From a virus, in the IMG/VR virus record IMGVR_UViG_3300036766_002288, positions 64,001 through 128,000 of that record: a DNA stretch of 64,000 nt; one strand, written 5' to 3'. The notes under the pieces were generated by a model. It searched no databases and had not been told where the DNA came from. It saw only the letters and a list, made by a program, of their open reading frames with translations. A program made the translations under genes and the position numbers. This document shows positions 1 to 18,237 of the stretch, piece after piece (position 1 is the stretch's first letter; each line of letters begins with the position of its first letter).

Positions 1-876
1 AATCTCTAAAGTGCCTGGCTTTTTTTCCTGAATACTCTTCCTAATGTCAATCAAGTCCGTCGTATTAGCAGCTGTGTTCAACCTGACAAAATTTTTCTCA
101 ATATCAAAGTTAGCGATATTGTCATCATCTGCGATTAAATGTTTTGGACTGAAATTATTTACAACGTACTCCTTTTTGCCAGAAGCTGGGTCGTAAATAA
201 TGATGTGCTTTTCTTGAAAAGCTTCGCTAAAAGTTAATTGTAATGGCGACCCAATATATTCGACATTGCCTAGCTTCTGTTCTCCATGATAATGCCCTAA
301 AAACACCTGCTCCCAATGTGTGAATAATTCAGGCCCAACTTTAACCATGTCCCCATCATGCTCTAAAATAACATCAGCCAAACTACTAAAAAGACCATGT
401 AGCTCAGCACCATGTACCGCTAAATGACCTACTAATAATTTGTTTTGATTTTTTTCTAGAGTTTTTAAATGTTCGATTGGATTGCGAACGAATGGGAGAA
501 AATCAATGATATTCCCAGCAATTTCTATTGAACATGCTTTGTCAATAATGGTTACTTTTGGCAACGCCGAAAAAGGCAAAACACTATTAATGTCCCATTT
601 GTCTTGGAACCAAAGATCGTGATTGCCTAGAAGTAACCAAAGATTTATGCTGCCATCACAGTATTTTGACAATATGTCAAATGTTAAACAATAGGTGTGA
701 ATATCTATTTTTTGGCGATCTTGAAGCAAATCGCCAGCAAAAACAATGTCCTTGATACCCCTGGTCTTAGCAGTTTCAAACACCCACTCTAAAGCTTTCA
801 GACAATCTTGGAGTCGTTCAAAACTCCTCTTGTGCGTGTAAATGTGTGAATCTGCAAAAAGTAATATTTCACTCAT
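1..876 (-). CDS. Mre11/SbcD-like metallophosphoesterase (T4 gp47-like recombination nuclease subunit), runs off the window edge
   Basis: Not in ORF track (no stop in window). Manual translation from ATG at 876: MSEILLFADSH...FAGDLLQDR...LLGNHD...LVGHL...FLGHYH...YIGSPLQLTFSE, the five phosphoesterase motifs. Confidence 0.9.
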   Translation of the reverse strand, partial: MSEILLFADSHIYTHKRSFERLQDCLKALEWVFETAKTRGIKDIVFAGDLLQDRQKIDIHTYCLTFDILSKYCDGSINLWLLLGNHDLWFQDKWDINSVLPFSALPKVTIIDKACSIEIAGNIIDFLPFVRNPIEHLKTLEKNQNKLLVGHLAVHGAELHGLFSSLADVILEHDGDMVKVGPELFTHWEQVFLGHYHGEQKLGNVEYIGSPLQLTFSEAFQEKHIIIYDPASGKKEYVVNNFSPKHLIADDDNIANFDIEKNFVRLNTAANTTDLIDIRKSIQEKKPGTLEI

Positions 877-911
877 ACCAAGGATTATAGCAATGTATCC
901 GAAAATAACAA

Positions 912-1247
912 TTACTTTTTGGTTTCGTTACCTGATAGTAACTTCTCAAGTATCTTCCAAACATTGATTTCAGGCATTTTGAAAATAGGTTGCATTCCTG
1001 CGGCTCCACCTGCACCGCCGCCTGGTGGTGGCATACCGCCCCCTGGACCCCCTCCTAAACCACCTAATGAAGGTGGTGGACCACCTCCTAATGGTGGCAT
1101 ACCGCCCCCTGGACCTCCCAATGGCCCTGCGCCTGGTGGTAATGAAGCTGGACCTCCTCCTGGTGGACCGCCTGCTGGGGCGGGTGGTGGCCCTGGTGGG
1201 GCTTCATTCAAAATAACTTCACTTAGGAACTTTTTAAAAGTTTTCAC
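912..1247 (-). CDS. Pro/Gly-rich small protein with T4 capsid-targeting-like N-terminus
   Basis: MKTFKKFLSE start, PPGGG low-complexity core, TATATA 4 nt upstream of the GTG. Confidence 0.7.
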   Translation of the reverse strand: MKTFKKFLSEVILNEAPPGPPPAPAGGPPGGGPASLPPGAGPLGGPGGGMPPLGGGPPPSLGGLGGGPGGGMPPPGGGAGGAAGMQPIFKMPEINVWKILEKLLSGNETKK

Positions 1248-1289
1248 TTAATATATAGTATGGTTACTAAAATAAGCAAGGGGTTAGCT

Positions 1290-2147
1290 ATGCATAATTT
1301 AGAAATTGGCCCATTATCCTTAACTTTCATGAGAACGGTTCGCGTTAAAGAAGTCGATACTTCTAATCTTCCGCCTGGTATGGGCTGCATGGATATTTAC
1401 AAAGTTTCTGATTATGGTGAAAATTGTCCCAATTCCTGGGATAGAGATGCTTATTTCATAGCAATGCACGACATTGAAGCCATGTGGATGAATTTTCAGT
1501 GCTGCACTCCTGTCGCCATATTAATCAGCGCAGGTAACATCAACGCTATTTCTGGAGAAGAATTTGAAAACAAACTAGCCAAGGACAATTATTTAATAGC
1601 CCCACCACAACCTTGGCTAGATGGTTGGAAAAGCAACGATGGTAGTGTTTATCAATTCGTTTCAACCACGGCAGGCGAAGGATTAAGTGTCGGAGAACAG
1701 ATTTCAAAAACTAAAGATCATGCAATGCAAATTTCAGTATTTGAACCAAAAGACCCAGAAAAATTACGTAATACATTGAATACACCAAGAACAACTTGGG
1801 GTATGTCTGATGACGATGAATGTATTGCTAGTGATTATGACTTTTGCAAATGTGGGTCATTAAAAATGTGCGCAAGTGAAATGGCAGTCGGAAAAGGTGG
1901 AAAAATAATACAAAAAATATACGAAGACCCACATGGAATTGAAGAGTGGAAAGAAAATCCTACAAAAACTGTAAAGGTTTACTTAATTAATGCTGCACAG
2001 TTTGCAGAAATTACAAATAAGGAAATGCCACCAACGCCAGTCAGTAATCAAGAATACCAAGGTATGTGGTATGGACTAGACGACAACCACCTTAATGGCA
2101 CAACTGGTTCGGCAATTTTCAATAATTTAAAAAGTGTAGGAACCTAA
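1290..2147 (+). CDS. Conserved uncharacterised protein (RTxR..LPPGxG / QPWLDG / QF family)
   Basis: Motifs FMRTVRV..LPPGMG, AMWMNF, INAISGE, PQPWLDGW, QFV..GEG.SVGEQ recalled from a widespread hypothetical family. Confidence 0.7.
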   Translation: MHNLEIGPLSLTFMRTVRVKEVDTSNLPPGMGCMDIYKVSDYGENCPNSWDRDAYFIAMHDIEAMWMNFQCCTPVAILISAGNINAISGEEFENKLAKDNYLIAPPQPWLDGWKSNDGSVYQFVSTTAGEGLSVGEQISKTKDHAMQISVFEPKDPEKLRNTLNTPRTTWGMSDDDECIASDYDFCKCGSLKMCASEMAVGKGGKIIQKIYEDPHGIEEWKENPTKTVKVYLINAAQFAEITNKEMPPTPVSNQEYQGMWYGLDDNHLNGTTGSAIFNNLKSVGT

Positions 2148-2149
2148 TC

Positions 2150-2470
2150 ATGAAGACAATTTTTGCTCTAATTTTCGGACTAACCTTGTTTCTAACAACA
2201 GTTATGGCCGATGCGCAAGTAATAGTGACAAGACGAGAATCAAAAATTTATTATCCTGTTGCTATACAAAATAGCCAGTGGCGAACTTTTTTTGTCGCAC
2301 CACATGGCTTTTACTACGATAATCGTGGTCACTTAACACCAGTTGGTTTTCGTTTCCATACCACGTTTAGACGTGGCGACCATGTATATGGCAGGGTAGT
2401 AAGACTACGTGTAGTAGCTACTCCAGTAGTAACTTTTGGTGCATGGACGTATACTCCAGAATGGCGATAA
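2150..2470 (+). CDS. Secreted/membrane hypothetical protein
   Basis: N-terminal signal peptide (MKTIFALIFGLTLFLTTVMADA). Confidence 0.65.
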   Translation: MKTIFALIFGLTLFLTTVMADAQVIVTRRESKIYYPVAIQNSQWRTFFVAPHGFYYDNRGHLTPVGFRFHTTFRRGDHVYGRVVRLRVVATPVVTFGAWTYTPEWR

Positions 2471-2477
2471 AAAGTTC

Positions 2478-2505
2478 TTGACAAGTCAGAAATTCATGCT
2501 AAGAT
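2478..2505 (+). promoter_or_regulatory. Sigma70-type promoter for the leader/tRNA operon
   Basis: TTGACA (2478-2483), 16 nt, TAAGAT (2500-2505) with upstream TG; the same architecture recurs at 14344 and 28118. Confidence 0.7.
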
Positions 2506-2570
2506 AACAGTGTAAGATTTTTATCTAGAAAAATTTGGGTCCGTTGCATATATTAAGTAAGGAATTTAAA

Positions 2571-2648
2571 ATGTTTAATTTATCCGTAAGTTTGCTGTCC
2601 AGTTTATCATCGTTACTCTATAGTAACGCGGGAAGAGGGACCGAGTAA
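2571..2648 (+). CDS. Attenuator leader peptide, 25 aa, Ser/Leu-rich (MFNLSVSLLSSLSSLLYSNAGRGTE)
   Basis: AAGGA SD then ATG 2571; codons 4-18 = 6 Leu, 7 Ser, 1 Tyr, 1 Val; TAA at 2646-2648 lies 20 nt before a terminator. Confidence 0.85.
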   Translation: MFNLSVSLLSSLSSLLYSNAGRGTE

Positions 2649-2683
2649 GCATACGGATTTCAGGGTTAAAAACCCACCGTGAG
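2649..2683 (+). promoter_or_regulatory. Antiterminator hairpin (region 2:3)
   Basis: TACGG(2652-56):CCGTG(2677-81) and GGGTT(2663-67):AACCC(2671-75) sequester the 5' arm of the terminator. Confidence 0.7.
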
Positions 2684-2708
2684 CCGAAAGGTTTACGGTG
2701 GGTTTTTT
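2668..2708 (+). terminator. Intrinsic terminator (attenuator region 3:4)
   Basis: AACCCACCGTGAGCC-GAAA-GGTTTACGGTGGGTT, 15 bp with G.U pairs, followed by a T-tract. Confidence 0.9.
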
Positions 2709-2713
2709 GTTGG

Positions 2714-2725
2714 GTTCTTTGACAA
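2714..2725 (+). promoter_or_regulatory. boxA-like Nus antitermination element
   Basis: GTTCTTTGACAA resembles rrn boxA (GCTCTTTAACAA / GTTCTTTGAAAA), located between terminator and first tRNA. Confidence 0.6.
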
Positions 2726-2740
2726 TTTGGCTAGATTCTT

Positions 2741-2823
2741 GGTAGGTTCGGCATTGGCAAGCCAGCTTATTTCGAAAATAAGTAAACCGAAAGGTTTTGA
2801 GAATTCAACTTTCTCACCTACCG
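2741..2823 (+). tRNA. tRNA-Ser(CGA)
   Basis: GGTAGGT/ACCTACC acceptor, G73, CTTAT-TTCGAAA-ATAAG, long variable arm. Confidence 0.9.
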
Positions 2824-2852
2824 CTATACCTTAGTTGTACTGACTAAGGAAA

Positions 2853-2938
2853 GGGTGCTGTTCCACACGCTTGTCTGTAAAACAAGTGCCATTAATATGT
2901 GTGGTGGATGGCGATGGGTTCAAATCCTACGGTGCCCA
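2853..2938 (+). tRNA. Atypical D-armless tRNA-Tyr(GTA)-like RNA
   Basis: GGGTGCT/GGTGCCC acceptor (3 G.U), A73, GCTTGT-CTGTAAA-ACAAGT, TTCAAAT T-loop; only 9 nt in place of the D-arm. Confidence 0.65.
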
Positions 2939-2945
2939 CTTGAAA

Positions 2946-3030
2946 TGTAGCGTTTGGGCATTGGCAAGCCCCACTGACTGTAAATCAGCCGCCCTATGGG
3001 CATTGTAGATTCGACTCCTGCACGCTGCAC
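2946..3030 (+). tRNA. tRNA-Tyr(GTA)
   Basis: TGTAGCG/CGCTGCA acceptor, CTGA-CTGTAAA-TCAG, variable arm, TTCGACT T-loop. Confidence 0.85.
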
Positions 3031-3036
3031 TGACTT

Positions 3037-3125
3037 GGAGTAAATTGAAAGTGGCTATTCTAATCACTCCGCTAAAGTGACAGGTGGGGAAACCCGCCTT
3101 GTGAGTTCGACGCTCACTTACTCCG
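3037..3125 (+). tRNA. tRNA-Ser(GCT)
   Basis: GGAGTAA/TTACTCC, G73, TCACT-CCGCTAA-AGTGA (C at 33), long variable arm. Confidence 0.85.
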
Positions 3126-3190
3126 CTTCAATAAATTTTCCAAAAATTTATTGAACGGTTACTCTTGTATTATTATACAAGGAGTAATCT

Positions 3191-3742
3191 ATGAAAAATT
3201 TAGAAGTCGAAATTATGACATTAAGGGAAGATGGGCATTCTTACAACGCCATAGCAAAAAAACTAAATTGTTCTAAAGGCACAATTAGTTATTATTGCGG
3301 TGAAGGACAAAAACAAAAAAGTAAAACAAGGATTCAGAATAGAAGAAAAAATACTGTAATTTCGAAACGTGTTGAAAACTTTCAAATTGATAGAAAAATA
3401 AGAGACAAATCTGAAGATTTTCAACGGGAAAGAATAATTGTTAAGAGTAAAACTCGTTTAGGCAAACGGTCTTTGACATTTACTTGGAGAGATGTAATTG
3501 ATAAATTCGGATGGGAAACAATATGTTATCTAACTGGAAGGGCTATAAATTTAAGAGAGCCGAAAACTTATCAGTTTGACCATATACATCCTTACGGCAA
3601 AGGAGGAAGTTCAACTTTAGATAATTTAGGTATTCTTATTAAAGAAGTAAATCAAGCTAAGGCAGACATGACCGTTGAAGAATTTTTAAATCTATGTAAA
3701 GACGTTTTGGAATATAATGGCTATGAAGTAAAACGTTTGTAA
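3191..3742 (+). CDS. HNH homing endonuclease with N-terminal HTH
   Basis: HTH LREDGHSYNAIAKKLNCSKGTISYY; CYLTG...FDHIHP..KGG....NL......VNQAK. Confidence 0.85.
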   Translation: MKNLEVEIMTLREDGHSYNAIAKKLNCSKGTISYYCGEGQKQKSKTRIQNRRKNTVISKRVENFQIDRKIRDKSEDFQRERIIVKSKTRLGKRSLTFTWRDVIDKFGWETICYLTGRAINLREPKTYQFDHIHPYGKGGSSTLDNLGILIKEVNQAKADMTVEEFLNLCKDVLEYNGYEVKRL

Positions 3743-3760
3743 ATGGAAGCTTCCGCTTAT

Positions 3761-3834
3761 GGCACAGTAGGCAATTAGCAGACCACTTTCGCTTAAAACG
3801 AGAGATGCTGTCAGTGCAAATCTGACCTGTGCTA
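3761..3834 (+). tRNA. tRNA with Leu(TAA) anticodon, short variable loop
   Basis: GGCACAG/CTGTGCT, A73, CTTTCG-CTTAAAA-CGAGAG, T-loop TGCAAAT. Confidence 0.85.
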
Positions 3835-3838
3835 CTTT

Positions 3839-3912
3839 GGCGACGTAGGCAATTAGCAGACCACTTAGACTCAGACTCTGAGATGCTGTCAGTGCAAGTC
3901 TGACCGTCGCTA
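3839..3912 (+). tRNA. tRNA with Leu(CAG) anticodon, short variable loop
   Basis: GGCGACG/CGTCGCT, CTTAGA-CTCAGAC-TCTGAG, T-loop TGCAAGT. Confidence 0.85.
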
Positions 3913-3918
3913 CTTTTT

Positions 3919-3992
3919 GGCAACGTAGGCAATTAGCAGACCACTTTCTTTCAAACGGAGAGATGCTATGGGTGCGAGTCCCATCGTTGCTA
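3919..3992 (+). tRNA. tRNA with Leu(CAA) anticodon, short variable loop
   Basis: GGCAACG/CGTTGCT, CTTTCT-TTCAAAC-GGAGAG, T-loop TGCGAGT. Confidence 0.85.
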
Positions 3993-4175
3993 CTATGATA
4001 CCTAGACGTTTCAGAATACTATCTTCGTCCTCAATTATGACAGAATTAGGGATCAAAGACACCTATGGTGTTTTCTTTCCTGACTTTGGCACATTCATTA
4101 TAATGTCTGAAGAAAGAGGAATAGATGAGTTTGATGGTTGTCCCGAAGATGTTGAGTGGTTGGACTAGATAGTAT

Positions 4176-4922
4176 ATGGCTATTTTCCTAGAACATGTGA
4201 ATAAGCGAGATTTAAATAAAAGATTATTTGAAACTTTTGGCAAGTACAAAGTCTTCATTGTAGACGGCCAAGCCATTAGAAAACTTAATCTAACTGACCA
4301 TGAGTTTACTGATTCCGCCATCCATGCTACCTTTCCTAAATTAATACCAGATAAGGAAATATGGATAGATGATGTAATCAAACCGAATGAAAGATTTATA
4401 TTGATAAGTAATTTACTATCATTATACAAGTATTTAAGTAAAGAATCCTTGGACAAAGCTTATGATAAAGCATTGAAAAAAGAAAAGTCGATGAGGGAAA
4501 AGGTAGACAACGTAAGATTACATCCAGAAAAAACGAATGAAAGAGCGTCACCGAAGGTTTACAAGAGTCTATATGGTAAGATTGGAGATGTTAAGATTTG
4601 GTTGGTAGATGGGGAATACGTAAGAGATAAGTATAAGACAGATTATACCGAAGGTGGACACGATTACGTATACAAATGGATTCCACACAATGAAATTTGG
4701 ATTGAGTCCACAATGCATAAGTCTGAAATGCCTTTGATCGTTTTACATGAATTTGTGGAAAGAACATTGATGAAGACCAAGGGAATAGAGTATGATAAGG
4801 CACATACGATTGCATCGAAAGTGGAATTTGCAAAAGAAGATAAGTTTGATAGGAACGATGTTTTATCCATGACTGAGGATAAGGCATTGAAGATGGACGA
4901 GACGCGAGTGGTTAGCAACTGA
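4176..4922 (+). CDS. Hypothetical protein with internal domain duplication and HExxE motif
   Basis: (V/W)xVDGxxxR...IPxxEIWI occurs twice; LHEFVERTLM..H in the second copy. Confidence 0.75.
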   Translation: MAIFLEHVNKRDLNKRLFETFGKYKVFIVDGQAIRKLNLTDHEFTDSAIHATFPKLIPDKEIWIDDVIKPNERFILISNLLSLYKYLSKESLDKAYDKALKKEKSMREKVDNVRLHPEKTNERASPKVYKSLYGKIGDVKIWLVDGEYVRDKYKTDYTEGGHDYVYKWIPHNEIWIESTMHKSEMPLIVLHEFVERTLMKTKGIEYDKAHTIASKVEFAKEDKFDRNDVLSMTEDKALKMDETRVVSN

Positions 4923-4977
4923 TTTTGAAAATCAGGGGACCGAAAGGTTCTGTGGGTTCGAATCCCATCTCGATCCG
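4895..4977 (+). tRNA. tRNA-Ser(TGA), bulged acceptor stem; overlaps 3' end of upstream CDS
   Basis: GGACGAG/CTCG[A]TCC, G73, CTGAT-TTTGAAA-ATCAG, variable arm, TTCGAAT. Confidence 0.8.
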
Positions 4978-4980
4978 CTT

Positions 4981-5067
4981 GGAGCGTTGGCAGAGTGGCT
5001 GAATGCGCTAGTCTTGAAAACTAGAGTCCCCTCACGGGGACCGAGGGTTCAAATCCTTCACGCTCCG
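4981..5067 (+). tRNA. tRNA-Ser(TGA)
   Basis: Canonical: GGAGCGT/ACGCTCC, CTAGT-CTTGAAA-ACTAG, long variable arm. Confidence 0.95.
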
Positions 5068-5115
5068 TACAATAAAATTATCATAATTTTTATTGAACCC
5101 TAACTATGTTAGGGC

Positions 5116-5640
5116 ATGAAAGAACAAATATTAAAACTCCGTGCAGAAGGTTTGTCTTATAGGGAAATCTGTGCCCGATTAGACTGCTCAAAAAGTGTAG
5201 TGTCCTACCATTGTGGGGATGGACAAAAAGTAAAAACTAGGATTAGGGCACAAAAAAGACGAGGCAGGGCGGTTGTAGATAATAAAATTTATAGATTCAA
5301 AAATAAAAAAGCCTTGAGAGACAAAACGAACGATTTCCAACGAAGAGAAGGGGGCAAGCTTAAAATTAGAAAAATTATTTTTAATTATGAAGATGTAATG
5401 CAAAAATTTGGAGAAACCCCTATATGCTATTTAACGGGAAGAGAAATAAATTTAGAAGACACAAAAAACTATCACTTTGACCATATTATACCAGCAACGC
5501 GCGGCGGCTCAAACGATATAGATAATTTAGGACTAGCGTGTAAAGAAGCAAATAAAGCTAAGTCAGATATGACAATAAATGAGTTTATACAAATTTGTAA
5601 AGAAGTATTAGAGCATAATGGTTACAGGGTAATTAAGTAA
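5116..5640 (+). CDS. HNH homing endonuclease with HTH (paralog of 3191-3742)
   Basis: LRAEGLSYREICARLDCSKSVVSYH; CYLTG..FDHIIP..RGGSN...NL...CKEANKAK. Confidence 0.85.
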   Translation: MKEQILKLRAEGLSYREICARLDCSKSVVSYHCGDGQKVKTRIRAQKRRGRAVVDNKIYRFKNKKALRDKTNDFQRREGGKLKIRKIIFNYEDVMQKFGETPICYLTGREINLEDTKNYHFDHIIPATRGGSNDIDNLGLACKEANKAKSDMTINEFIQICKEVLEHNGYRVIK

Positions 5641-5642
5641 TT

Positions 5643-5729
5643 GGACGGTTTGGACATTGGCAAGTCCCCTTAGTTGGAAACTAAGTACACCCGAAAGGGT
5701 GTGTAGAGTTCGAATCTCTAACCGCTCCG
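5643..5729 (+). tRNA. tRNA-Ser(GGA), bulged acceptor stem
   Basis: GGACGGT/ACCG[C]TCC, G73, CTTAG-TTGGAAA-CTAAG, long variable arm. Confidence 0.85.
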
Positions 5730-5734
5730 CTTAT

Positions 5735-5811
5735 GGCGCAGTGATGCAACCTTCGGCAGACATTCTTGACTTAGAATCAAGATTATATGGGTTCGAATCC
5801 CATCTGCGCTA
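5735..5811 (+). tRNA. tRNA with Leu(TAG) anticodon, short variable loop
   Basis: GGCGCAG/CTGCGCT, A73, CTTGA-CTTAGAA-TCAAG, variable loop ATTAT. Confidence 0.85.
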
Positions 5812-5827
5812 GTATAATAGTGAAAAT

Positions 5828-5910
5828 GCGGTAGTGGCGGAACGGTATACGCGCTTGCTTGAGGTGCAAGTCCCTTAAGTGGGATGTGGGTTCGACTCCC
5901 ACCTACCGCA
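5828..5910 (+). tRNA. tRNA-Leu(GAG), class II
   Basis: GCGGTAG/CTACCGC, CTTGC-TTGAGGT-GCAAG, long variable arm. Confidence 0.95.
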
Positions 5911-5912
5911 CT

Positions 5913-6155
5913 ATGAAAACTACATATTATCGACAATGCAAATTGCAGAAAAAGAACACCTTCCAAACCAGCTATATTCCAGAAGAATTTGCTGTTATGA
6001 ATAAGATTATTAAACTACGTGACAACAACGTATGGGATGATGGCTGGAAGGTCATCGCAGTTAGTTCTTCACGGCACGCAGATGATAACCTGCCTGACTC
6101 TCATTCTTCAATTAAGGCACATCGTAGGGCAACTGGTGATTCACAAAGGAAATAA
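5913..6155 (+). CDS. Hypothetical protein
   Basis: ATG immediately after tRNA-Leu(GAG); the ORF-track N-terminal extension is tRNA sequence. Confidence 0.6.
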   Translation: MKTTYYRQCKLQKKNTFQTSYIPEEFAVMNKIIKLRDNNVWDDGWKVIAVSSSRHADDNLPDSHSSIKAHRRATGDSQRK

Positions 6156-6156
6156 T

Positions 6157-6441
6157 ATGTGTTTCATATATGATGAATACGCCGAACTTTACAAAGAAAA
6201 AGACGTAAAGGCAAAAAAAGAACACAAATGTTCTGAATGCGCCAGAACTATCTTTAAAAATGAGACGTATCAATATATTTTCACAATATTTCAAGGTGAT
6301 GCGACCACTACAAAGATTTGTTCAGATTGCAAGGATAAAAGACAAAAAATACATGATATAGAGATTAGTCATGGATGTAGCGAAAATGAATCTTGGCCTC
6401 CTTTAGGCGAACTAAGGGAATATTTACAACATTATGAATGA
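6157..6441 (+). CDS. Small Zn-finger protein
   Basis: KxRKxHxCxEC...CxDC pattern. Confidence 0.65.
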   Translation: MCFIYDEYAELYKEKDVKAKKEHKCSECARTIFKNETYQYIFTIFQGDATTTKICSDCKDKRQKIHDIEISHGCSENESWPPLGELREYLQHYE

Positions 6442-6462
6442 TATATACTGTAAAGGAGTATC

Positions 6463-6660
6463 ATGGACAAGCGTGAATACCGACAACTAAAAAGGACTTT
6501 AAAAAAAGAAGGCAACAAAAAGGCACGAAAAAAACTTAAAAATGACTTAAGAGACAATCCTGAAGAAACCCATTGGTCAGAGATAGATTACGGCAACTGT
6601 AAGACCGAAGATATGAAAAAATACAGCAGAGGACATGAAGATGAATATAGGTCTATTTGA
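6463..6660 (+). CDS. Small basic hypothetical protein
   Basis: GGAG SD, in operon order. Confidence 0.55.
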   Translation: MDKREYRQLKRTLKKEGNKKARKKLKNDLRDNPEETHWSEIDYGNCKTEDMKKYSRGHEDEYRSI

Positions 6661-7210
6661 TATGGACGGTAGCTTAGCTGATTATGAAGGTCAACTAAGG
6701 AAGGATTTGACCAAATGTCTTGGTGAAGAAGATTTGAAAAAGTTCGATGAGTTAGGCATGTGGAAAGCTGACGACCAAGAACCATTTAAATCACTCATTA
6801 GACTGATTAAGAATCAACCTTGTTGGTGGAAGAATCTCCCAGTAATGCAGAAAGGACTGGATATTTTCCACCTTGCTGTGCAGATTGGTTTTAAGAACCA
6901 TATTTTAACTAAGGGTCCAAAACATTATCCAAGGGCGTGGAAAGAAAAAGTTGAATGGTCTCAGCATTTATTTGGCAAGGATATTGACATTCATATAACA
7001 TCGGATAAAGGGTTAGTTTACGGCAGATTTTTATATGACGATTATCCTGATTATATGTTAAAATGGCTTGGGAGGCGTCCAAGGGGTTTGGGTATTATGC
7101 CAGTGAACAATTTCAATAAGGATTTTAACCATCCACAGGTAATTAAATGGGATGGAATAAACTATGATGAAGTGAAGGAAGCGTTGATAAAATGTTTCAA
7201 TAGGGGCTAA
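6641..7210 (+). CDS. 5'(3')-deoxyribonucleotidase (NT5C/HAD family)
   Basis: LFDMDGSLADY, WWxNLP, ILTKGP, EKVEW, DK..V.G..LYDD. Confidence 0.85.
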   Translation: MNIGLFDMDGSLADYEGQLRKDLTKCLGEEDLKKFDELGMWKADDQEPFKSLIRLIKNQPCWWKNLPVMQKGLDIFHLAVQIGFKNHILTKGPKHYPRAWKEKVEWSQHLFGKDIDIHITSDKGLVYGRFLYDDYPDYMLKWLGRRPRGLGIMPVNNFNKDFNHPQVIKWDGINYDEVKEALIKCFNRG

Positions 7211-7231
7211 GTGGCAAAACGGTATACGCAG
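7205..7231 (+). pseudogene. 5' fragment of a class II tRNA-Leu
   Basis: GGCTAAGTGGCAAAACGGTATACGCAG aligns with the 5' 27 nt of the tRNA at 7752, then diverges into A-rich spacer. Confidence 0.65.
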
Positions 7232-7266
7232 AAATAAAAATTAAAACGTGTTTACTATATTAGTTG

Positions 7267-7749
7267 ATGAGAAAAAGAAAATGGAATGACGAGCAATTAA
7301 TAGAAGCTGTTAAAACAAGCAAATCGGTGATGGAAGTATTGAAAAAAATTGGCTTAGGTTTAAGTGGTGGCTCCCATGCTTTGGTAAAAATGAGGATTAA
7401 ACATCTTAAAATTGATAATTCTCATTTTACAGGAAAAGGATGGTGCAGAGGGGAAAAGCACGAGGAATTCATTAAGCGAGTACTTCAGTATCCTTTAGAA
7501 CAAGTTTTAGTCAGAGATTCAACTTATCAGAACACACATGCCTTGAAAAAAAGACTTATAAAAGAAGGATTATTAATAAACGAATGTTGTAATTGTAAAC
7601 TAACCACATGGCTCAATGAGCCTATCAGTTTACAATTACATCATAAAGATGGAGATAGATGTAATAATTTGATTGGAAATCTATCAATACTATGTCCAAA
7701 TTGTCATAGTCAAACATCTACATTTGCAGGTAAGAGTAAAAGAAAATAA
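7267..7749 (+). CDS. HNH homing endonuclease (second subfamily)
   Basis: WNDEQLIEAV..S.S..EVLKK.GL; CCNC..W....LQLHHKDGD..NN...NL..LCPNCHSQT. Confidence 0.9.
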   Translation: MRKRKWNDEQLIEAVKTSKSVMEVLKKIGLGLSGGSHALVKMRIKHLKIDNSHFTGKGWCRGEKHEEFIKRVLQYPLEQVLVRDSTYQNTHALKKRLIKEGLLINECCNCKLTTWLNEPISLQLHHKDGDRCNNLIGNLSILCPNCHSQTSTFAGKSKRK

Positions 7750-7751
7750 AC

Positions 7752-7832
7752 GGCCAAGTGGCGGAATGGTATACGCGGCACACTCAAAATGTGTTGTCCT
7801 TGGGCATGTGGGTTCGACTCCCACCTTGGCTA
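7752..7832 (+). tRNA. tRNA-Leu(CAA), class II
   Basis: GGCCAAG/CTTGGCT, GCACA-CTCAAAA-TGTGT. Confidence 0.95.
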
Positions 7833-7993
7833 CTTATGAATACAAGTCTCAAATATCATGAAAAGATTTGGAAAGAATCCAGTTTTTTAACAAAGATTAA
7901 ATTTATTTTTTTTGGTTCGATCATATTCATGATCTTAATCGTTGGGTATTGTTGGGACAATGGAATTAAGAAGACATTGGATTTATTCAAAGA

Positions 7994-8419
7994 ATGAGCG
8001 TATTTCTATATAATTTTGAGCTTTTAACATGGATGCAATGGAAGATAAACTATCTTCCAGGCATTAGGGTTCAATGTGATTTCAGCAAGATTAATGCTAC
8101 ACCAGCGGTTCATATTGCAACTACGACAGATCAAATACGTTATCCTTGGTATGAAAATGGTGATTGGCGGGATGGGACTCCGTTGTGGTTCAAAGTTGGT
8201 GGTGGCCAGGTATTATGGCGGGGGCCTGCTGTAAGATATAAAGGTGTTTATTTAATTTTAGATGGGTGTCATAGGCTTCTTGACTTACAGCCAAGTATTG
8301 TTATAATGGATTATATTGATTTGAAGCAGGAAGAAATTTGTTATTTTAGTGACCTTTTAGGGATGTGGAACAATGACAATCCAAGAAGCGGCTGGTTTTT
8401 TGGTAAAACACCTGAATGA
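7994..8419 (+). CDS. Hypothetical protein, ParB/Srx-like motif
   Basis: YLILDGCHRL resembles the ParB-N DGHHR motif. Confidence 0.5.
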   Translation: MSVFLYNFELLTWMQWKINYLPGIRVQCDFSKINATPAVHIATTTDQIRYPWYENGDWRDGTPLWFKVGGGQVLWRGPAVRYKGVYLILDGCHRLLDLQPSIVIMDYIDLKQEEICYFSDLLGMWNNDNPRSGWFFGKTPE

Positions 8420-8561
8420 TCCAGAAACATTTATTGTTTCTGTTCGGGATAATGAAATCTTTGTAGACGTTAATTGGATTTATCGTAAGTATGAAATAGA
8501 TCAATTAGGCGGCAGTTGGAACGGGTTTCCAGTGAAAACAGGTCGCATAAGTTGTTGGTAA
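8373..8561 (+). CDS. Small hypothetical protein
   Basis: ORF in operon order. Confidence 0.5.
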   Translation: MTIQEAAGFLVKHLNDPETFIVSVRDNEIFVDVNWIYRKYEIDQLGGSWNGFPVKTGRISCW

Positions 8562-8779
8562 GCAGCAATCGTGGCGGGTAGTGAGCATAGCAGGGGCGAA
8601 AACGCAAATATTCCGCGAACGAAGGACTGGGCGAGTGAGTGGTGAGCGATCTTTCTTTATTCATGGATGAATAAGTGGCTTATTAGAGGCGAAGTTCATC
8701 TAACTATGACAACCAGAAAGAGCGGCGGATATTCTAATCGGCGGTATCAAAAGGCGTGACACCTGCATAGTCGATTGAT

Positions 8780-8861
8780 GGCCAAGTGGTGGAACGGTAT
8801 ACACAGCAGACTTAAAATCTGCCGCCCGTTGGGCTTGCGGGTTCAACTCCCGCCTTGGCCA
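8780..8861 (+). tRNA. tRNA-Leu(TAA), class II
   Basis: GGCCAAG/CTTGGCC, GCAGA-CTTAAAA-TCTGC. Confidence 0.95.
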
Positions 8862-9003
8862 CTATATGTCTTTCATAATAAATTTAACCTTTCTGCCAGT
8901 ATCAATATTTGCATACTTACTATTCCAAAAATGGTATAAACCAATTACAATTCCAGGCATACTATATCATTACATTGAAACTGGTAAATGGGGAAACTAG
9001 CCA

Positions 9004-9567
9004 ATGGAAAGAACTGAACTAACTGATGGCGGATACATATTGTATCAACCAGATTTCTATAATACAAAAATCGCAGATAATCTCTTCAACTTGTTACTAG
9101 ATGTTCCCTGGAAACAAGAGACATTTTCTTGGGGCAAATTTCCTAGACTCACATCTTATTACGCCGATGAAGGTGTAAAATATGAATATTCTGGAGTCAC
9201 CCACAAAGCTTTGGTATGGCCAGGAATTCTCTCAGCGGTAAAAGATAAAACTCAACAAGTTGTTGGTGAGAAATTTAACAGTCTATTGTTAAATTTCTAC
9301 AGGGATGGTGCGGATTCTATTGGCTGGCATTCAGATGATGAGAAAGAATTAGGAATAAATCCAATCATTGCATCTATTTCATTGGGTGCTGAAAGAACAT
9401 TCAATGTTAGGCACAAAAGAACTAAGGAAAAGTGGTCTATAGTTTTAAAGAATGGAAGTTTAATAGTTATGGGTGGTACAATGCAACATCATTGGCAGCA
9501 TTGTGTGCCAAAGACAACCAAGCCAGTTTTTGCAAGAATAAACCTTACTTTTAGGAACATTTTATGA
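9004..9567 (+). CDS. alkB: AlkB-family 2OG-Fe(II) dioxygenase (ALKBH2/3-like)
   Basis: PRLTSYY, NSLLLNFYRDGADSIGWHSDDE (HxD), HWQHCVPK, RINLTFR. Confidence 0.92.
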   Translation: MERTELTDGGYILYQPDFYNTKIADNLFNLLLDVPWKQETFSWGKFPRLTSYYADEGVKYEYSGVTHKALVWPGILSAVKDKTQQVVGEKFNSLLLNFYRDGADSIGWHSDDEKELGINPIIASISLGAERTFNVRHKRTKEKWSIVLKNGSLIVMGGTMQHHWQHCVPKTTKPVFARINLTFRNIL

Positions 9568-9962
9568 GTTCATACAAAGAAGCATGTCAAGTTACAAAAG
9601 AGACTGATAAGTTATTTACAGCATACGATTTTCATCCAAGTGATTTGGTTGTAATTGGTCATGAAGAAGGCACACAGTTAGTGTATAAAAGTGCCTTCTT
9701 AAAAGAATGGAAAGATTACATCTTCGTTTTCACAGAGCATCATGGGACTTTAGTTTACCATAAATACGATTTATCTTATTATAATCAATACACTACCAAG
9801 GAAATAGAAAAGCTAAAATTCACATTTCATAAGGATATATGTCAAGACTGCAAAATTGAATTCAAAGTTGAAGATTTAAGGTATGGCTATCATCCAGAAC
9901 GATATGAGGAAATCAGCATTCTTTGTAATGGTTGCTATGAAAAGGCTTGTGACTTACCCTGA
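9564..9962 (+). CDS. Hypothetical protein with C-terminal CxxC..CxxC
   Basis: ORF with Zn-ribbon-like cysteines. Confidence 0.6.
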   Translation: MSSYKEACQVTKETDKLFTAYDFHPSDLVVIGHEEGTQLVYKSAFLKEWKDYIFVFTEHHGTLVYHKYDLSYYNQYTTKEIEKLKFTFHKDICQDCKIEFKVEDLRYGYHPERYEEISILCNGCYEKACDLP

Positions 9963-12900
9963 TACCTTTTTAATATAAATGCCATTCGTTGCTAGCTCAA
10001 AAGTTAAATACTCAATATATTCTTTAGCTGATTTTAGATTCCAACCCAATGCTTCTCTAGCTAGTTTTATTGCTTGAATCTTATCTCCCTGTTCTATTTT
10101 GCTCTCCATGTCCATTATTGTTTTTTTGTCTAAAAACGGCTTGCCAGGCATATCATGGTAGTGCTGAACCATTATTTCATGTGCTTTTTCTTGAGATAAA
10201 GGAGAAATGGCATAAATTGTTTTAGCATCAAAATATTTTTGTATTGCTAATTCTTTTAAATAGGTTTTTTTGATATCAAACAATTGATTTGGACTATAAT
10301 TAGCACCTAATGCGGCGTTGACCTTAGTTAAAATATCTTCAATTGGATAACTAGGGTTGTAATATTTAGTAGAAATAATTGCCCTCGCTACTTTCAAATC
10401 CATTGGGAAAAGGAATGCCTTCAATGGATTAAAGCTGTTTTTCAAAGAATCAATAATTTTAGCACCTGTATCTATGGGAGCAGGAGCAGTTGCTAGTTCC
10501 ATATCATCTGCTTCGATAGCATAACTACCGCCACTAGGAAACTTAACACTATAACCATGTTCAAAATCTGATTGTGGAATTTTGTAAACAATTGTTCCAA
10601 CCATACCTTTGTGATAACCATTTATGATCTTAACTGGATCGCCATTTTTGAATTCTTTTTTAGGTTTTGAAGACAACTCAATATTCACCACCTTAATAGG
10701 TGCCTCGCCACCATCATCAAACTTAATATGCACCATGTTATCTTTGTAAGCGCCTGTATAAGTTTTAGTTATATGACCAGTCAGACCTGCATACATTCCA
10801 TCTTTGACTTTTACAAAGTCTCCGACTTTAAAATCCTTTTTAGACCCCGCCGCCACTGGTGCTACTAATTGCAGATTGCCTGCATGTACCAAATATTCAT
10901 ATCCAGCACCGCCAGACTTTATTTTATAAAGATTATCACCTACAATTTTCTCTTTAACGACGCCAGTTATTCCATTATGTTCACCGCCAGTAACTTTAAC
11001 GGTTGCCCCAATTTCAAACGTTTTTGACTGACCCTTCTTGCCTGTTATTTCGAACTGATTTGGTGCTAAAATTTGATCTTGTTTGCCACCGAAGGCAATG
11101 TCTAAAGCAATAGTATAATTTGTTCCGTGGTTCACCTTAACGGTGCCTGTAAAACCTGCAAAACTACCATCTATTACCTTAACAATGTCCCCCACTTCTG
11201 GGGTGGGCGATTTATCTAATTCGATATCATTTTTATAGAAAAGATACGGGGAATCGGATGACCCTAATGTAACCATATAATTCCCATTTTCAGTCTTGTG
11301 CTTAAATTTACCTTTTTTGCCTGTGTGCAAACCATTTTTAACTTTAATAGGATCGCCTGCCTTAAAATCTTCTTTTTCCTTAACAGAATCATCCTTCTTC
11401 AAATCCCCCTGAGAGAAATACAAATTTTGCTTTTTACTATCAAGGGGACTTTCTACGGCGACAATCCACACACCTTCAGTTGAAGTTGAGGTTACAATCT
11501 CACCTTTCTTGCCCTTGTAATCACCATTAGTTATGATTACAGGGTCGCCTACTTTATATGATGGTCTTGTTTTTTCATCCTTTTGCAAATCGTAGTTTGA
11601 ATAGGGAATTAGGTTTACAAGACCAAGATCGACTTGATAGGGATATGGGTCTTCGGCGGCTTTTATATTTTTGATAAAACCTTTCATGCCTTTATGACTT
11701 CCATATTTGATAGTAACATGGTCGCCTACTTTAAGGCCCAGAAGCGACTTGCCACCGCTAGCGGAATCGTCTTTCTTGAAGTAATCTGAGGAATACCATT
11801 GTTCATCGGCTTCCCCACCATGCGGCATCGTTACAAGAACACTCCATGAATGCCCATTATAACTTTTGAGAACACCTTTTGAGCCGTTATAAGTGCCATG
11901 AGTGATGATTACATGGTCCCCTACCTTATTCCCTTTTTCGTCTGGGAAGCTGCTGGCTTTCTTTTCAACAACTTCAAATCTATGTCTCTTAAAAGCCTTT
12001 GTAGGCTTATCTGCGAACTCGACGTTGAAATAAGGAAAATCGTATTTGTAAATCTTATCTATGACGGTTCCAGTTTGGCCAACATATCCACTAGAACCAC
12101 CTATAATCTTAACCTTGTCACCAATATCTACATCAGAAGGATGTGGGGGCTGATTAATTGGGGTTCCTGTGTATGTCGGCTGTGGAACAGGTTTACCCTT
12201 ATTAACCTTGGCCCAATATTCTTGATTAACTTGTCCCATAGAGTATGGGGCTGGTCCATAATTGCCAGTTACAGGGCTTGATACTGATTGATTTATAATA
12301 TGTTGACTAGCATATTGTTCTGGGGTAATATCTTTAGGCTTACTTTCCCAATAAGTATCATTAGGATAGTTTTTTTCATGTTCAGCTTTCTTTTTCTCAT
12401 ATTGAGATTGCTGCATCTGATTATATATCTCTGCCTTTTTCTTTAGAATTTCAGGCCAATCTTTCTCAAAGTCCAAAAAAGTTTTGCCTGTCTTGAGCTT
12501 AATACCAATTTTGGCCACTTCCCGCATTGAAGGACTAATATGCTCAAACATTTCGTGGGGAGAAACTAGATCACGTTTATGGTCAAGTGATTTCTGAATC
12601 CAATCATACTTATTATCTTTCCTATAACTTTTTAATTTAGTGAATACACTACCAGTATTATGTTGTAAGTCGTAAACATGGTCAATGTAGGCGATTATCT
12701 TATTTGGCGTTTCGGCATCATTTAGGTGTGTCCAACCATCAGCAATACCTCCCCAGGCTTTGCCACCATATGAACTACCCCATTTTGCATTATAAAATAG
12801 CCAACTGGCTAGCTTTGCCCATTCTTCATCTGTTCCACCTGCATGTTTCAGAGCTTTGTATGAAGTGGTATAACCATCATCACTGTTTTTAGCTGTAGTC

Positions 12901-13454
12901 GGTATATGGATACGATCCATTATTTCTGCTGTTTCTGGATTTTGTAAATTTCTTAAAGCGAGTGTGTAATTCCTTAGTAAACTTGCTTCTTTTGGACCGA
13001 GTTCCTTTTTCACTCTTTCAATTAAAAGTTTAGGCTTATTTCTTTCACTATCATATAAGTGTCTTAATTCGGCGGAAATAGAAAACATAACTGCTTCCAA
13101 TAGTTCCTTTTTAAGGGCTGGCAGTAGTTTATTGCCTACTTCATATAGAGCATGATAGAATTTGTCCTCTACGGTCATGGACATATCACCATAATGTCTC
13201 GTATCTGGTGGAAGTCCTTTTTCTTCTCTTTCTTTATTCTGAAGTGCATTAGCTTTTTCTGTATCTTCTCCACCAAAATCCATTGGTTTTAGATACATGT
13301 GAATACCAGGCGGAAGAAGATATTCGAGCATGTAAAAGTCGTACATTTGCTGTTGTCTATCTTCTGGGACATGGTATGTCCATGAACCAAATACACCTTC
13401 TAGTATTGGATTATAATCTTTTTTATTTAACCAATTAGCGAACTTGTCTAGCAT
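9954..13454 (-). CDS. Giant protein: unknown N-terminal domain + 9 KOW repeats + C-terminal L7/L12-CTD-like motif
   Basis: Nine (F/K)xxGDxVxIxxGxxxGxxG repeats; C-terminal GDKIQAIKLAREALGWNLKSAKEYIE; likely start MLDKFANWL with TAAATA 5 nt upstream. Confidence 0.8.
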   Translation of the reverse strand: MLDKFANWLNKKDYNPILEGVFGSWTYHVPEDRQQQMYDFYMLEYLLPPGIHMYLKPMDFGGEDTEKANALQNKEREEKGLPPDTRHYGDMSMTVEDKFYHALYEVGNKLLPALKKELLEAVMFSISAELRHLYDSERNKPKLLIERVKKELGPKEASLLRNYTLALRNLQNPETAEIMDRIHIPTTAKNSDDGYTTSYKALKHAGGTDEEWAKLASWLFYNAKWGSSYGGKAWGGIADGWTHLNDAETPNKIIAYIDHVYDLQHNTGSVFTKLKSYRKDNKYDWIQKSLDHKRDLVSPHEMFEHISPSMREVAKIGIKLKTGKTFLDFEKDWPEILKKKAEIYNQMQQSQYEKKKAEHEKNYPNDTYWESKPKDITPEQYASQHIINQSVSSPVTGNYGPAPYSMGQVNQEYWAKVNKGKPVPQPTYTGTPINQPPHPSDVDIGDKVKIIGGSSGYVGQTGTVIDKIYKYDFPYFNVEFADKPTKAFKRHRFEVVEKKASSFPDEKGNKVGDHVIITHGTYNGSKGVLKSYNGHSWSVLVTMPHGGEADEQWYSSDYFKKDDSASGGKSLLGLKVGDHVTIKYGSHKGMKGFIKNIKAAEDPYPYQVDLGLVNLIPYSNYDLQKDEKTRPSYKVGDPVIITNGDYKGKKGEIVTSTSTEGVWIVAVESPLDSKKQNLYFSQGDLKKDDSVKEKEDFKAGDPIKVKNGLHTGKKGKFKHKTENGNYMVTLGSSDSPYLFYKNDIELDKSPTPEVGDIVKVIDGSFAGFTGTVKVNHGTNYTIALDIAFGGKQDQILAPNQFEITGKKGQSKTFEIGATVKVTGGEHNGITGVVKEKIVGDNLYKIKSGGAGYEYLVHAGNLQLVAPVAAGSKKDFKVGDFVKVKDGMYAGLTGHITKTYTGAYKDNMVHIKFDDGGEAPIKVVNIELSSKPKKEFKNGDPVKIINGYHKGMVGTIVYKIPQSDFEHGYSVKFPSGGSYAIEADDMELATAPAPIDTGAKIIDSLKNSFNPLKAFLFPMDLKVARAIISTKYYNPSYPIEDILTKVNAALGANYSPNQLFDIKKTYLKELAIQKYFDAKTIYAISPLSQEKAHEIMVQHYHDMPGKPFLDKKTIMDMESKIEQGDKIQAIKLAREALGWNLKSAKEYIEYLTFELATNGIYIKKVSG

Positions 13455-13483
13455 TGTAATATTTATGTTCTTTTCTCTCAATT

Positions 13484-14379: not shown

Positions 14380-14910
14380 ATGAAATACACCAAGGAACTA
14401 CTTGAGGCCATAGTAAAAGAAAGCTTATCAGTAGCCCAAGTTATAAAGAAATTAGGACTAAAACAAGCTGGTGGTACGCATCATTACATTTCAAAAAAGC
14501 TTAAGTGCTTTGAAATTAATGTTGAGCATTTTACTGGACGCGCAAGTAACCACGGAGACATGCATAAAGGTGGCCCAGCTAAAAGAACGTGGCAAGAAAT
14601 ACTAGTTTTAAGAGAAGATGGTAAAAGACAAAGAGCATTTGTATTAAGACGTGCATTGATTGAATCTGGAAGCAATTACGAATGCAGTATATGTAATATT
14701 AAAGAATGGTTTGGCAAGACAATAATTCTAGAAGTAGACCATCTAAATGGCGATTATTGTGATGACAGAAAAGAAAATATAAGATTTATGTGCCCGAATT
14801 GTCATAGTCAATCACCTAAATATTGTGGCAGTAAGGGTTACACAACTATAACTAGCACTGCCAAATCGCAGAAAGAAAGAAGGAAGAGAGTACAGTTGGC
14901 CAAGTGGTGA
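14380..14910 (+). CDS. HNH homing endonuclease (paralog of 7267-7749); stop lies inside the next tRNA
   Basis: YTKELLEAIV..S.S..QVIKKLGL; CSIC..W....LEVDHLNGD..D....N.RF.CPNCHSQ. Confidence 0.9.
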   Translation: MKYTKELLEAIVKESLSVAQVIKKLGLKQAGGTHHYISKKLKCFEINVEHFTGRASNHGDMHKGGPAKRTWQEILVLREDGKRQRAFVLRRALIESGSNYECSICNIKEWFGKTIILEVDHLNGDYCDDRKENIRFMCPNCHSQSPKYCGSKGYTTITSTAKSQKERRKRVQLAKW

Positions 14911-15001
14911 AATGGCATACACGCAGGTCTTATTGGTTAAACAACCAGCAATAGAAGCCTGTGCCCGTAAGGGCGTGCGGGTTCAAGTCCCGCCTTGGCC
15001 A
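14898..15001 (+). tRNA. Class II tRNA-Leu (probably TAG) with 21-nt insertion in the anticodon loop
   Basis: GGCCAAG/CTTGGCC, CAGGT/GCCTG stem enclosing a 28-nt loop CTTATTGGTTAAACAACCAGCAATAGAA. Confidence 0.8.
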
Positions 15002-15005
15002 CTTT

Positions 15006-17708: not shown

Positions 17709-17713
17709 TTAGT

Positions 17714-17837
17714 GGCCGAATAGTCTAACGGTATGGCGGTAGAATTACATTACGTGGCTTTGGCTGAAAATGCCGATATTATAGTTTCCACATAATCCCT
17801 AATCTACAGATGGCGGGTTCAATTCCCTCTTCGGCCA
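17714..17837 (+). tRNA. tRNA (probably Val TAC) with 52-nt structured insertion in the anticodon loop
   Basis: GGCCGAA/TTCGGCC, A73, D-arm GTCTAACGGTATGGC, GTAGA/TCTAC stem enclosing 59 nt, T-loop TTCAATT. Confidence 0.75.
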
Positions 17838-18237
17838 ATTAGGAGAATTTATGACCCTTGAATACTTGCTATTTAGATTCTGTATGGCAACAGCCATATC
17901 TACAATATTCGTATTAACTTGTCTAATGGATAAGTTTCATGGTCCAGTGAGTGTAATTATTTTTACCTTGATAACCATAATGATGATTGTCAAGGCAGGA
18001 TTAGCTTATAATGACTTTCAAAGAAGAACTGACGTATAAAATAGAAGTATACCTTAAAGGTTGGATTACTATTAGGGAATTGAACGCTTGGCTTGCTCCA
18101 ACTGGCTGGGATATCCATTTGTGGGGCACGCCCGAGGAACAAGAGATGTGTTATTCCACTTCTCTATACATATGGGAATACAAATATTGGCCCATAAAAG
18201 AGTTTAGGGAGAAGTTAGCTAAGATAATTAACAAAAA

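Follow-up and report, generated by a model that had tools for sequence, protein, structure and literature searches.

A probable leader-peptide attenuator in front of a phage Ser/Tyr/Leu tRNA array

What determines when a phage transcribes the transfer RNA (tRNA) genes that it carries is the question raised by a short element at positions 2478-2725 of the window analysed here, a stretch of DNA of 64,000 nucleotides (nt) that corresponds to bases 64001-128000 of the 187-kb IMG/VR record IMGVR_UViG_3300036766_002288. The record is assigned a completeness of 37% by CheckV, which for a sequence of 187 kb indicates that the source of the window is a fragment of a very large phage; DNA of the window is contained in sediment metagenome runs also. 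An initial annotation had described the element as an attenuator with a leader peptide, placed ahead of an operon of phage tRNA genes and written in codons that mirror the tRNAs downstream, and this core reading is supported by the comparative and folding analyses presented below, which, like all of the evidence on the leader and tRNA cassette, were conducted in silico. The element is probably a ribosome-mediated attenuator that would govern read-through from a promoter, P1, into an array of Ser, Tyr and Leu tRNA genes.

Leader, terminator and tRNA genes in the window

The promoter, Shine-Dalgarno sequence and leader open reading frame (ORF) that had been annotated upstream of the array were recovered at the same positions, all on the plus strand. 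P1 (2478-2505) is a sigma-70-type promoter that scored 10 of 12 matches in a promoter scan, with TTGACA at 2478-2483, a 16-nt spacer and TAAGAT at 2500-2505, the latter preceded by TG, and the transcript is expected to start near 2512. The Shine-Dalgarno sequence, AAGGA, was read at 2559-2563, 7 nt upstream of the ATG at 2571 that opens a leader ORF of 25 codons plus a TAA stop (2571-2648, with the stop at 2646-2648). Codons 4-18 of this ORF comprise 6 Leu, 7 Ser, 1 Tyr and 1 Val codon, exactly as had been claimed, and Ser, Leu and Tyr together account for 14 of the 24 codons that follow the start, compared with 18.3% in the long ORFs of the phage (binomial P = 1.5e-5). Among the 1314 small ORFs of the 187-kb record, three match the Ser/Leu/Tyr fraction of the leader, probably including the leader itself. 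Promoter-proximal, equipped with a ribosome-binding site and located upstream of a tRNA array, the leader has the arrangement by which leader-peptide attenuators are recognised. The word TGCATATATTA, at 2546-2556 in the 5' untranslated region of the leader, is retained with one variant in five aligned cassettes (alignment A2), and might be a binding site or the -10 region of a second promoter.

The array under proposed control occupies 2741-8862 on the plus strand, as delineated with ARAGORN in default and relaxed modes, the Rfam tRNA model, and PHROG and Pfam HNH matches. Its genes are those for Ser (CGA, GCT, TGA, GGA), Tyr (GTA) and Leu (TAA, CAG, CAA, TAG, GAG, followed by a second CAA and TAA), with genes for HNH endonucleases and other ORFs in between. 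ARAGORN with default settings reports Ser and Leu tRNAs only, and the Tyr-GTA gene at 2947-3030 and a short-armed Leu-TAG at 5738-5810 were seen with relaxed ARAGORN and Rfam only. The proposal that the codons of the leader have cognate tRNAs downstream is upheld for the Ser, Leu and Tyr families, but no Val tRNA with a TAC anticodon was found, the only trace of that family being a weak Val-AAC candidate (7856-7934). Since tRNAs for almost all Ser and Leu codons are present in the array, a match of codon to anticodon is nearly automatic, and only the match at the level of amino acids is informative.

The leader RNA, taken from the expected transcript start as far as the U-tract, folds with an energy of -66.6 kcal/mol, compared with -42.2 ± 3.9 kcal/mol for shuffled sequences (z = -6.2; none of 200 shuffles equalled it). 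The pairing of regions 1 and 2 (hereafter 1:2, and likewise for the others) takes the form of a long imperfect hairpin (2582-2658, -29.5 kcal/mol), obtained in the minimum-free-energy fold and with RNAalifold on eight sequences; region 1 (2582-2600) spans leader codons 4-10, region 2 (2638-2658) runs across the stop codon, and the pairing overlaps the coding region of the leader. One of the two helices originally drawn for 1:2, that of 2582-2588 with 2652-2658, is present in the minimum-free-energy fold, but the other, of 2613-2618 with 2643-2648, is replaced by pairing of 2590-2596 with 2644-2650 together with an apical hairpin inside the leader ORF (2611-2628), in which 2611-2617 pair with 2622-2628 to form 7 base pairs (bp) around a 4-nt loop. 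The GAAA-capped stem with a T-tract that had been assigned to 3:4 is an intrinsic terminator (2668-2708, -29.6 kcal/mol), formed by an 18-bp stem of 2668-2685 with 2690-2707, the GAAA loop at 2686-2689 and the U-tract, and it stands between the leader and the tRNA genes, the first of which (Ser-CGA) begins at 2741, 33 nt past the terminator. Lastly, a candidate antiterminator, 2:3 (2649-2684, -11.2 kcal/mol), appears in constrained folds, with 2649-2650 pairing with 2683-2684, 2652-2656 with 2677-2681 and 2663-2667 with 2671-2675. The latter two sets of pairs had been proposed beforehand and form when region 1 is masked; the complete structure would sequester most of the 5' arm of the terminator.

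Related cassettes and an unrelated phage

If the element is a regulatory cassette, its parts might be expected to recur in front of other tRNA arrays. A distant DNA search matched one record, that of the 595-kb uncultured phage LR756511.1, and the match is confined to the leader and terminator, with 73.6% identity and unmatched flanking DNA. The cassette of LR756511.1 has the same promoter, a GTG-started leader of 27 codons, a terminator and a Ser/Leu/Tyr array, and follows a gene for a protein of 292 amino acids (aa) that is 54% identical to the product of the window ORF at 1260-2147 (295 aa). With this neighbour gene as a handle for scans of IMG/VR and metagenomes, six further distinct cassettes were recovered (L013, L015, L017, L028, L029 and L031), three from IMG/VR, two of which were recovered twice, and three from metagenome contigs. 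In all seven homologous cassettes the counterpart of the 295-aa neighbour gene lies upstream and a Ser/Leu/Tyr array follows directly, of which the L028 contig includes only the first tRNA. Together with the cassette of the window they make up the set of eight used in the comparisons that follow.

Within this set the -35 hexamer of P1 is invariant and a -10 of the form TAnnnT is retained. Each of the eight leaders starts with ATG or GTG, 7-9 nt after an AAGGA or AAAGGAA site, and the distances from the start to the region-2 motif (72, 78, 78, 84, 84, 84, 87 and 87 nt) are all multiples of 3. The stop codon lies 0-3 nt before the region-2 motif in seven of the eight and 6 nt before it in the eighth, a placement that would let a terminating ribosome block region 2, which is masked fully in folds with the ribosome on the stop codon. 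Conservation of Ser, Leu and Tyr codons before the arrays of relatives, which the initial annotation had suggested should be looked for, was found, the homologous leaders containing 54-62% of such codons. RNA pairing (GGAC with GTCC), and not a function of the peptide, accounts for the conserved C-terminal residues of the leader.

Pairing is conserved to a similar degree. Over the whole set, 96.5% of pairs are standard and 13 of 36 pairs are changed on both sides, values that none of 500 column shuffles reached and that compare with 37-48% paired in slid controls, but which overstate independence since the eight cassettes are akin to one another. Both the 1:2 hairpin and the terminator belong to the RNAalifold consensus of the set. 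The terminator contributes the bulk of the covariation signal, with every cell paired and both-side changes in 8 of 13 pairs, while the 1:2 helices have approximately 95% of cells paired and both-side changes in 3 of 14 pairs, and one pair of the apical hairpin (column pair 72/81) switches among A-U, C-G and G-U. Covariation had been anticipated in relatives, and compensatory changes are indeed present in 1:2 and 3:4, but 2:3 shows no clean covariation. The Val codon, which had been listed among those sensed, lies in the conserved 1:2 helix and varies between Val and Ala in the homologues, and for these reasons looks structural as opposed to sensory. A search of IMG/VR with the exact pattern of the apical hairpin returned two chance matches inside unrelated coding regions, with no tRNAs nearby.

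These comparisons bear on whether the ORF is translated at all. The element could feasibly be a structured RNA, involved in stability, processing or pausing and ending in a terminator, in which the richness in Ser and Leu codons is a by-product of the hairpins; the coding region is almost wholly base-paired, and the high nucleotide conservation between the window and LR756511.1, with flanks that do not match, is in keeping with such an RNA. However, start codon, Shine-Dalgarno sequence, frame-preserving indels and the position of the stop are all kept, synonymous changes occur on both sides of pairs, for example in the apical hairpin, and in the unrelated phage contig G001, described next, leaders of very different composition serve the same job. 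An untranslated RNA is accordingly regarded as highly improbable, and the leader is probably translated as part of an attenuator.

The 82.6-kb contig G001 was found by means of a pattern search for the terminator junction, the other three of the four matches being unrelated coding DNA. At the protein level it has only one HNH match and one small ORF in common with the phage of the window. Four tRNA blocks are present. Block 1 (Leu-TAA, Cys, Leu-TAG, Leu-CAA, Ser-GCT, Ser-GGA, a weak Ser candidate and Tyr) is preceded by a TTGACA promoter, a leader of 23 codons and a terminator, and 14 of 22 codons of this leader (64%) specify Leu, Cys, Ser or Tyr, two of them being Cys codons that track the Cys tRNA of the block. 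Block 4 (Trp, Met, Ile-TAT, Lys, Arg-CCG, Val, Thr, Ile-GAT and Gly) has a leader of 24 codons, of which 19 of 23 (83%), ATA, CGG and TGG included, are those for Trp, Met, Ile, Lys, Arg, Val, Thr or Gly; the stop codon of this leader directly adjoins a hairpin that shares 3 nt with the terminator. When scored against the wrong block, the two leaders match by 13-23% only. The window leader and both G001 leaders are thus enriched in codons of the tRNAs that they would control. At the Trp-led block the junction between terminator and tRNA is nearly identical to that of the window, although 21 of its positions had been prescribed by the pattern with which it was found. When the G001 leaders were compared with the phage collection, at near identity and at greater distance, the outcome was tRNA-Trp matches or nothing.

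As for whether leader codons change with the content of the array, the two G001 leaders mirror their blocks at the level of amino-acid families, but no tracking was seen at the level of codons. A rule by which CTA in the leader accompanies a Leu-TAG tRNA was considered and rejected, the window having a Leu-TAG candidate and no CTA codon in its leader, and the sensing of individual Ser, Leu and Tyr isoacceptors that had been envisaged is not supported. A more distant relative of the window cassette, L022, has a leader with additional Ile, Thr, Lys and Asn codons and precedes Ser-GCT and Ile-TAT, after which the contig ends; a relative that continues this truncated array was searched for and none was found. 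In L064, a block of Ser, Tyr, Trp, Cys and Ser tRNAs is immediately preceded by a 27-codon ORF (approximately 260-345) that has a TTGACG promoter upstream. Ser and Leu codons abound in this ORF and codons for Cys, Tyr and Trp are present; it is devoid of a Shine-Dalgarno sequence and terminator, and may be a different arrangement or a coincidence.

The near-identical junction at the Trp-led block, together with the Cys codons that track a Cys tRNA, raises the tentative possibility that large phages in general use leader-peptide attenuators as modules by which blocks of tRNA genes are metered against decoding capacity in real time. Leaders would then be rewritten as the content of a block changes, and cassettes may move between unrelated phages; as a whole this wider view is less likely to be right than wrong. 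Were it true, the leaders would be natural sensors of multiple tRNAs, and could also be alarms for tRNA-cleaving defences.

The predicted switch and its purpose

How the cassette might operate was modelled by folding the transcript as far as the terminator loop while a ribosome footprint of 29 nt was moved from one A-site codon to the next. With the ribosome on codons 3-8 or 11-14 of the window leader, region 2 is freed and 2:3 forms in the constrained folds; with no ribosome, or with a stall at codons 15-21, the 1:2 hairpin is obtained; and with the ribosome on the last codons or the stop, region 2 is masked and neither 1:2 nor 2:3 is present. The three states expected of an attenuator, namely those of early stall, of no ribosome or late stall, and of the stop codon, were obtained in these folds for every member of the set of eight.

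These folds suggest the following sequence of events. Host RNA polymerase would initiate near 2512 and a ribosome would load on the leader ORF. Where Ser, Leu and Tyr codons are decoded rapidly, the ribosome would reach TAA at 2646-2648 and, since region 2 (here 2649-2658) starts directly after the stop, its footprint would cover this region; no antiterminator would form, the 18-bp terminator would fold and a transcript of approximately 195 nt would be released. Where decoding is slow, the ribosome would stall in the Ser/Leu-rich first half of the leader (codons 4-14) with region 1 covered, whereupon region 2 could pair with the 5' arm of the terminator and polymerase would continue into the tRNA genes. 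A leader that is not translated would adopt the 1:2 hairpin, and transcription would terminate. The predicted net effect is negative feedback, in which tRNA supply would go up when decoding capacity for the corresponding codons is low and down once that capacity is restored.

A number of observations weigh against this interpretation. An equivalent of 2:3 can form in eight of eight homologues, but its register shifts and no covariation in a fixed register is seen; in L029 and L031, where the terminator arm differs, region 2 pairs one position over. The energy of 2:3 is only weakly better than that of shuffled sequences, 7 to 97 of 300 shuffles folding as well. Ser, Leu and Tyr codons are not significantly concentrated at the stall positions that give 2:3 (62% within these positions and 51% outside them, Fisher P = 0.14), as judged with a single-ribosome equilibrium model, an earlier and looser metric having been uninformative. 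Codons 15-18, among them the sole Tyr codon of the leader, fall where the single-ribosome model predicts termination, although queued ribosomes could, as a matter of conjecture, extend the sensing range. Beyond the window, blocks 2 and 3 of the four in G001 have no leader, and when the remaining tRNA regions of LR756511.1 were scanned, no convincing leader emerged, most of the blocks showing none. Additionally, a stall that results from amino-acid starvation would not be relieved by more tRNA.

A further point against concerns the DNA between the terminator and the first tRNA, where the motif TCTTTGA(C/A)AATT(T/C)GG (2716-2730, plus strand) is kept in all related phages, even where approximately 40 nt have been inserted after the terminator. 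The core of the motif, TCTTTGACAA, is likewise located ahead of a leaderless array in L024 (at approximately 7420-7435) and ahead of the Trp-led block of the unrelated phage. The motif or its core was noted at 6130-6145 of L001 and 16086-16097 of L008 as well, and a similar A-rich word ending in AATTTG is found in the 5' untranslated region of the leader. The motif contains a -35-like hexamer, TTGACA (2719-2724), and if this were a promoter then the array would perhaps be transcribed in part independently of the attenuator. Taken to its limit, this leads to an alternative in which promoter, small ORF and terminator constitute a self-contained unit for a peptide or small RNA, insulated by the terminator, with the array transcribed from TTGACA at 2719-2724 or from elsewhere. 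The retention of the motif when separated from the terminator and its presence before a leaderless array fit this explanation, as does the strength of the terminator (-29.6 kcal/mol) when set against the weak antiterminator (-11.2 kcal/mol). However, no consistent -10 follows the motif in the homologues, and a transcript that started there would land inside the first tRNA. The conservation of the C-terminal residues of the peptide is explained by RNA pairing, a free-standing peptide would not be expected to vary in composition with the tRNAs downstream, as is seen in G001, and the placement of the stop against region 2 would be purposeless. On balance a self-contained unit is quite unlikely, and attenuation of read-through from P1 is preferred.

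The purpose that such an attenuator would serve is a separate issue. It had been proposed initially that the phage induces its own tRNAs as a counter to tRNA-targeting defence: the same attenuator would be shut in a healthy host and would open when an anticodon nuclease cleaves host Ser, Leu or Tyr tRNAs, thereby inducing replacements. This proposal draws on the restriction of the array to tRNA families with long variable arms, represented by several isoacceptors, some of them duplicated and some with unusual short-arm bodies, on published work that includes accounts of phage tRNAs rescuing infection from tRNA-cleaving defences, and on the consideration that cleaved tRNAs would cause stalling just as scarce ones would. 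The sequence, however, offers nothing to separate it from plain supply feedback, no defence or anti-defence gene is tied to the locus, and the unrelated G001 applies the same design to a further eight families of amino acids, as would be expected of a general tuning device more than of an answer to one nuclease. Since a stall reports slow decoding whatever its cause, ordinary feedback between supply and demand is the simpler explanation; the putative counter-defence purpose is no better supported by the sequence than plain supply feedback, and is considered unlikely.

The tRNA region and comparison with known systems

The tRNA region has several features besides those that bear on the switch. 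Four tRNAs with Leu anticodons (TAA, CAG, CAA and TAG), of 73-77 nt and located at 3761-3993 and 5735-5811, have a variable loop of 5 nt, which indicates class I bodies; canonical long-arm Leu-CAA and Leu-TAA are located at 7752-7833 and 8780-8862, respectively. Default ARAGORN misses both a clean long-arm cloverleaf with a Ser-TGA anticodon loop at 4893-4978, directly before the annotated Ser-TGA, and a Tyr-GTA-like RNA at 2848-2942 with an aberrant D region and a weak fold (z = -0.6). Matches to the Rfam tRNA model at 14898-15002 and 17713-17838, of 104 and 124 nt, are rendered by ARAGORN as intron-containing tRNAs, the former with anticodon TCA or ACA and the latter with TCT. In distant relatives, tRNAs with a CTA anticodon, which are of the amber-suppressor type and labelled Pyl by ARAGORN, are present near 2988 in L020 and L036 and near 74 in L044, and hint at reassignment or suppression of TAG in those phages.

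Three HNH homing-endonuclease genes lie among the tRNA genes (3191-3742, 5116-5640 and 7264-7749), two of them encoding N-terminal helix-turn-helix domains, and all three would be co-transcribed with the tRNAs on read-through. At the far end of the tRNA region, on the minus strand, an ORF of 1175 aa (9954-13481) has repeated KOW motifs (Pfam KOW, E = 1.3e-18, and Spt5 KOW families) and a weak match to the C-terminal domain of ribosomal protein L7/L12. Since KOW domains connect polymerase and ribosome in NusG, a role for this protein in the coupling of transcription and translation is conceivable from its sequence.

Whether the element belongs to a known family was examined with Rfam. A cmscan of window positions 1-12000 at E <= 1 returned tRNAs and two weak, unrelated matches, with nothing in 2478-2725; the element matches no covariance model, those of the Leu, His, Thr and Trp leaders and of the T-box included. 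Two possible precedents for the control of tRNA genes were rejected, namely the small ORFs that adjoin tRNA genes in phage T5, which have no terminators and no match in composition, and the E. coli pheV tRNA gene, which has a plain promoter and no leader. The novelty of the arrangement had been left to a check of the literature, and no publication that describes tRNA genes under leader-peptide attenuation came up in full-text searches. The regulation of tRNA genes is usually described in terms of promoter strength, growth rate or stringent control, and we know of no case in which the speed of translation on a leader sets the transcription of tRNAs.

If confirmed, the element would amount to a direct feedback loop from the decoding of codons to the supply of tRNA, and would imply that the phage measures need instead of expressing tRNAs blindly. 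It bears, too, on why phages carry tRNAs, and on the choice between codon compensation and escape from tRNA-targeting defence. In practical terms, the signature of the leader could define tRNA operons in uncultured phages, and the leaders would be compact natural sensors for the availability of specific sets of tRNAs, usable as reporters.

The three states predicted for the phage leader follow the classical logic of the attenuators of the trp, his, leu and ilv operons. The closest parallels are with the multivalent ilvGMEDA (Ile/Leu/Val) and thr (Thr/Ile) leaders of enterobacteria, which likewise have a promoter-proximal short ORF rich in more than one regulatory amino acid, an intrinsic terminator ahead of the controlled genes and a stop codon beside region 2; of their mutually exclusive pairings, 1:2 and 3:4 have counterparts in the phage element and 2:3 a candidate counterpart. 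The phage leader varies synonymous codons, as opposed to repeating one codon, and no sequence or Rfam relationship to the enterobacterial leaders was found; moreover, the ilvGMEDA and thr leaders control biosynthetic enzymes, whereas the phage element would control tRNAs, such that the quantity sensed, decoding capacity, is closely tied to the product. The leaders of pheST (pheM) and of similar synthetase genes also attenuate a component of the translation machinery in response to the level of charged tRNA, but these concern one protein enzyme and one amino acid, whereas the phage array comprises tRNA genes of three amino-acid families. T-box riboswitches likewise attenuate transcription according to tRNA status, for genes involved in the charging of tRNA, but do so by direct contact with uncharged tRNA, in which the specifier loop and the T-box sequence take part and translation does not, whereas the phage element has an ORF and a Shine-Dalgarno sequence. 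Leader-peptide attenuation is a known kind of control, and the new aspect of the phage element would be that the regulated product is the set of tRNAs itself.

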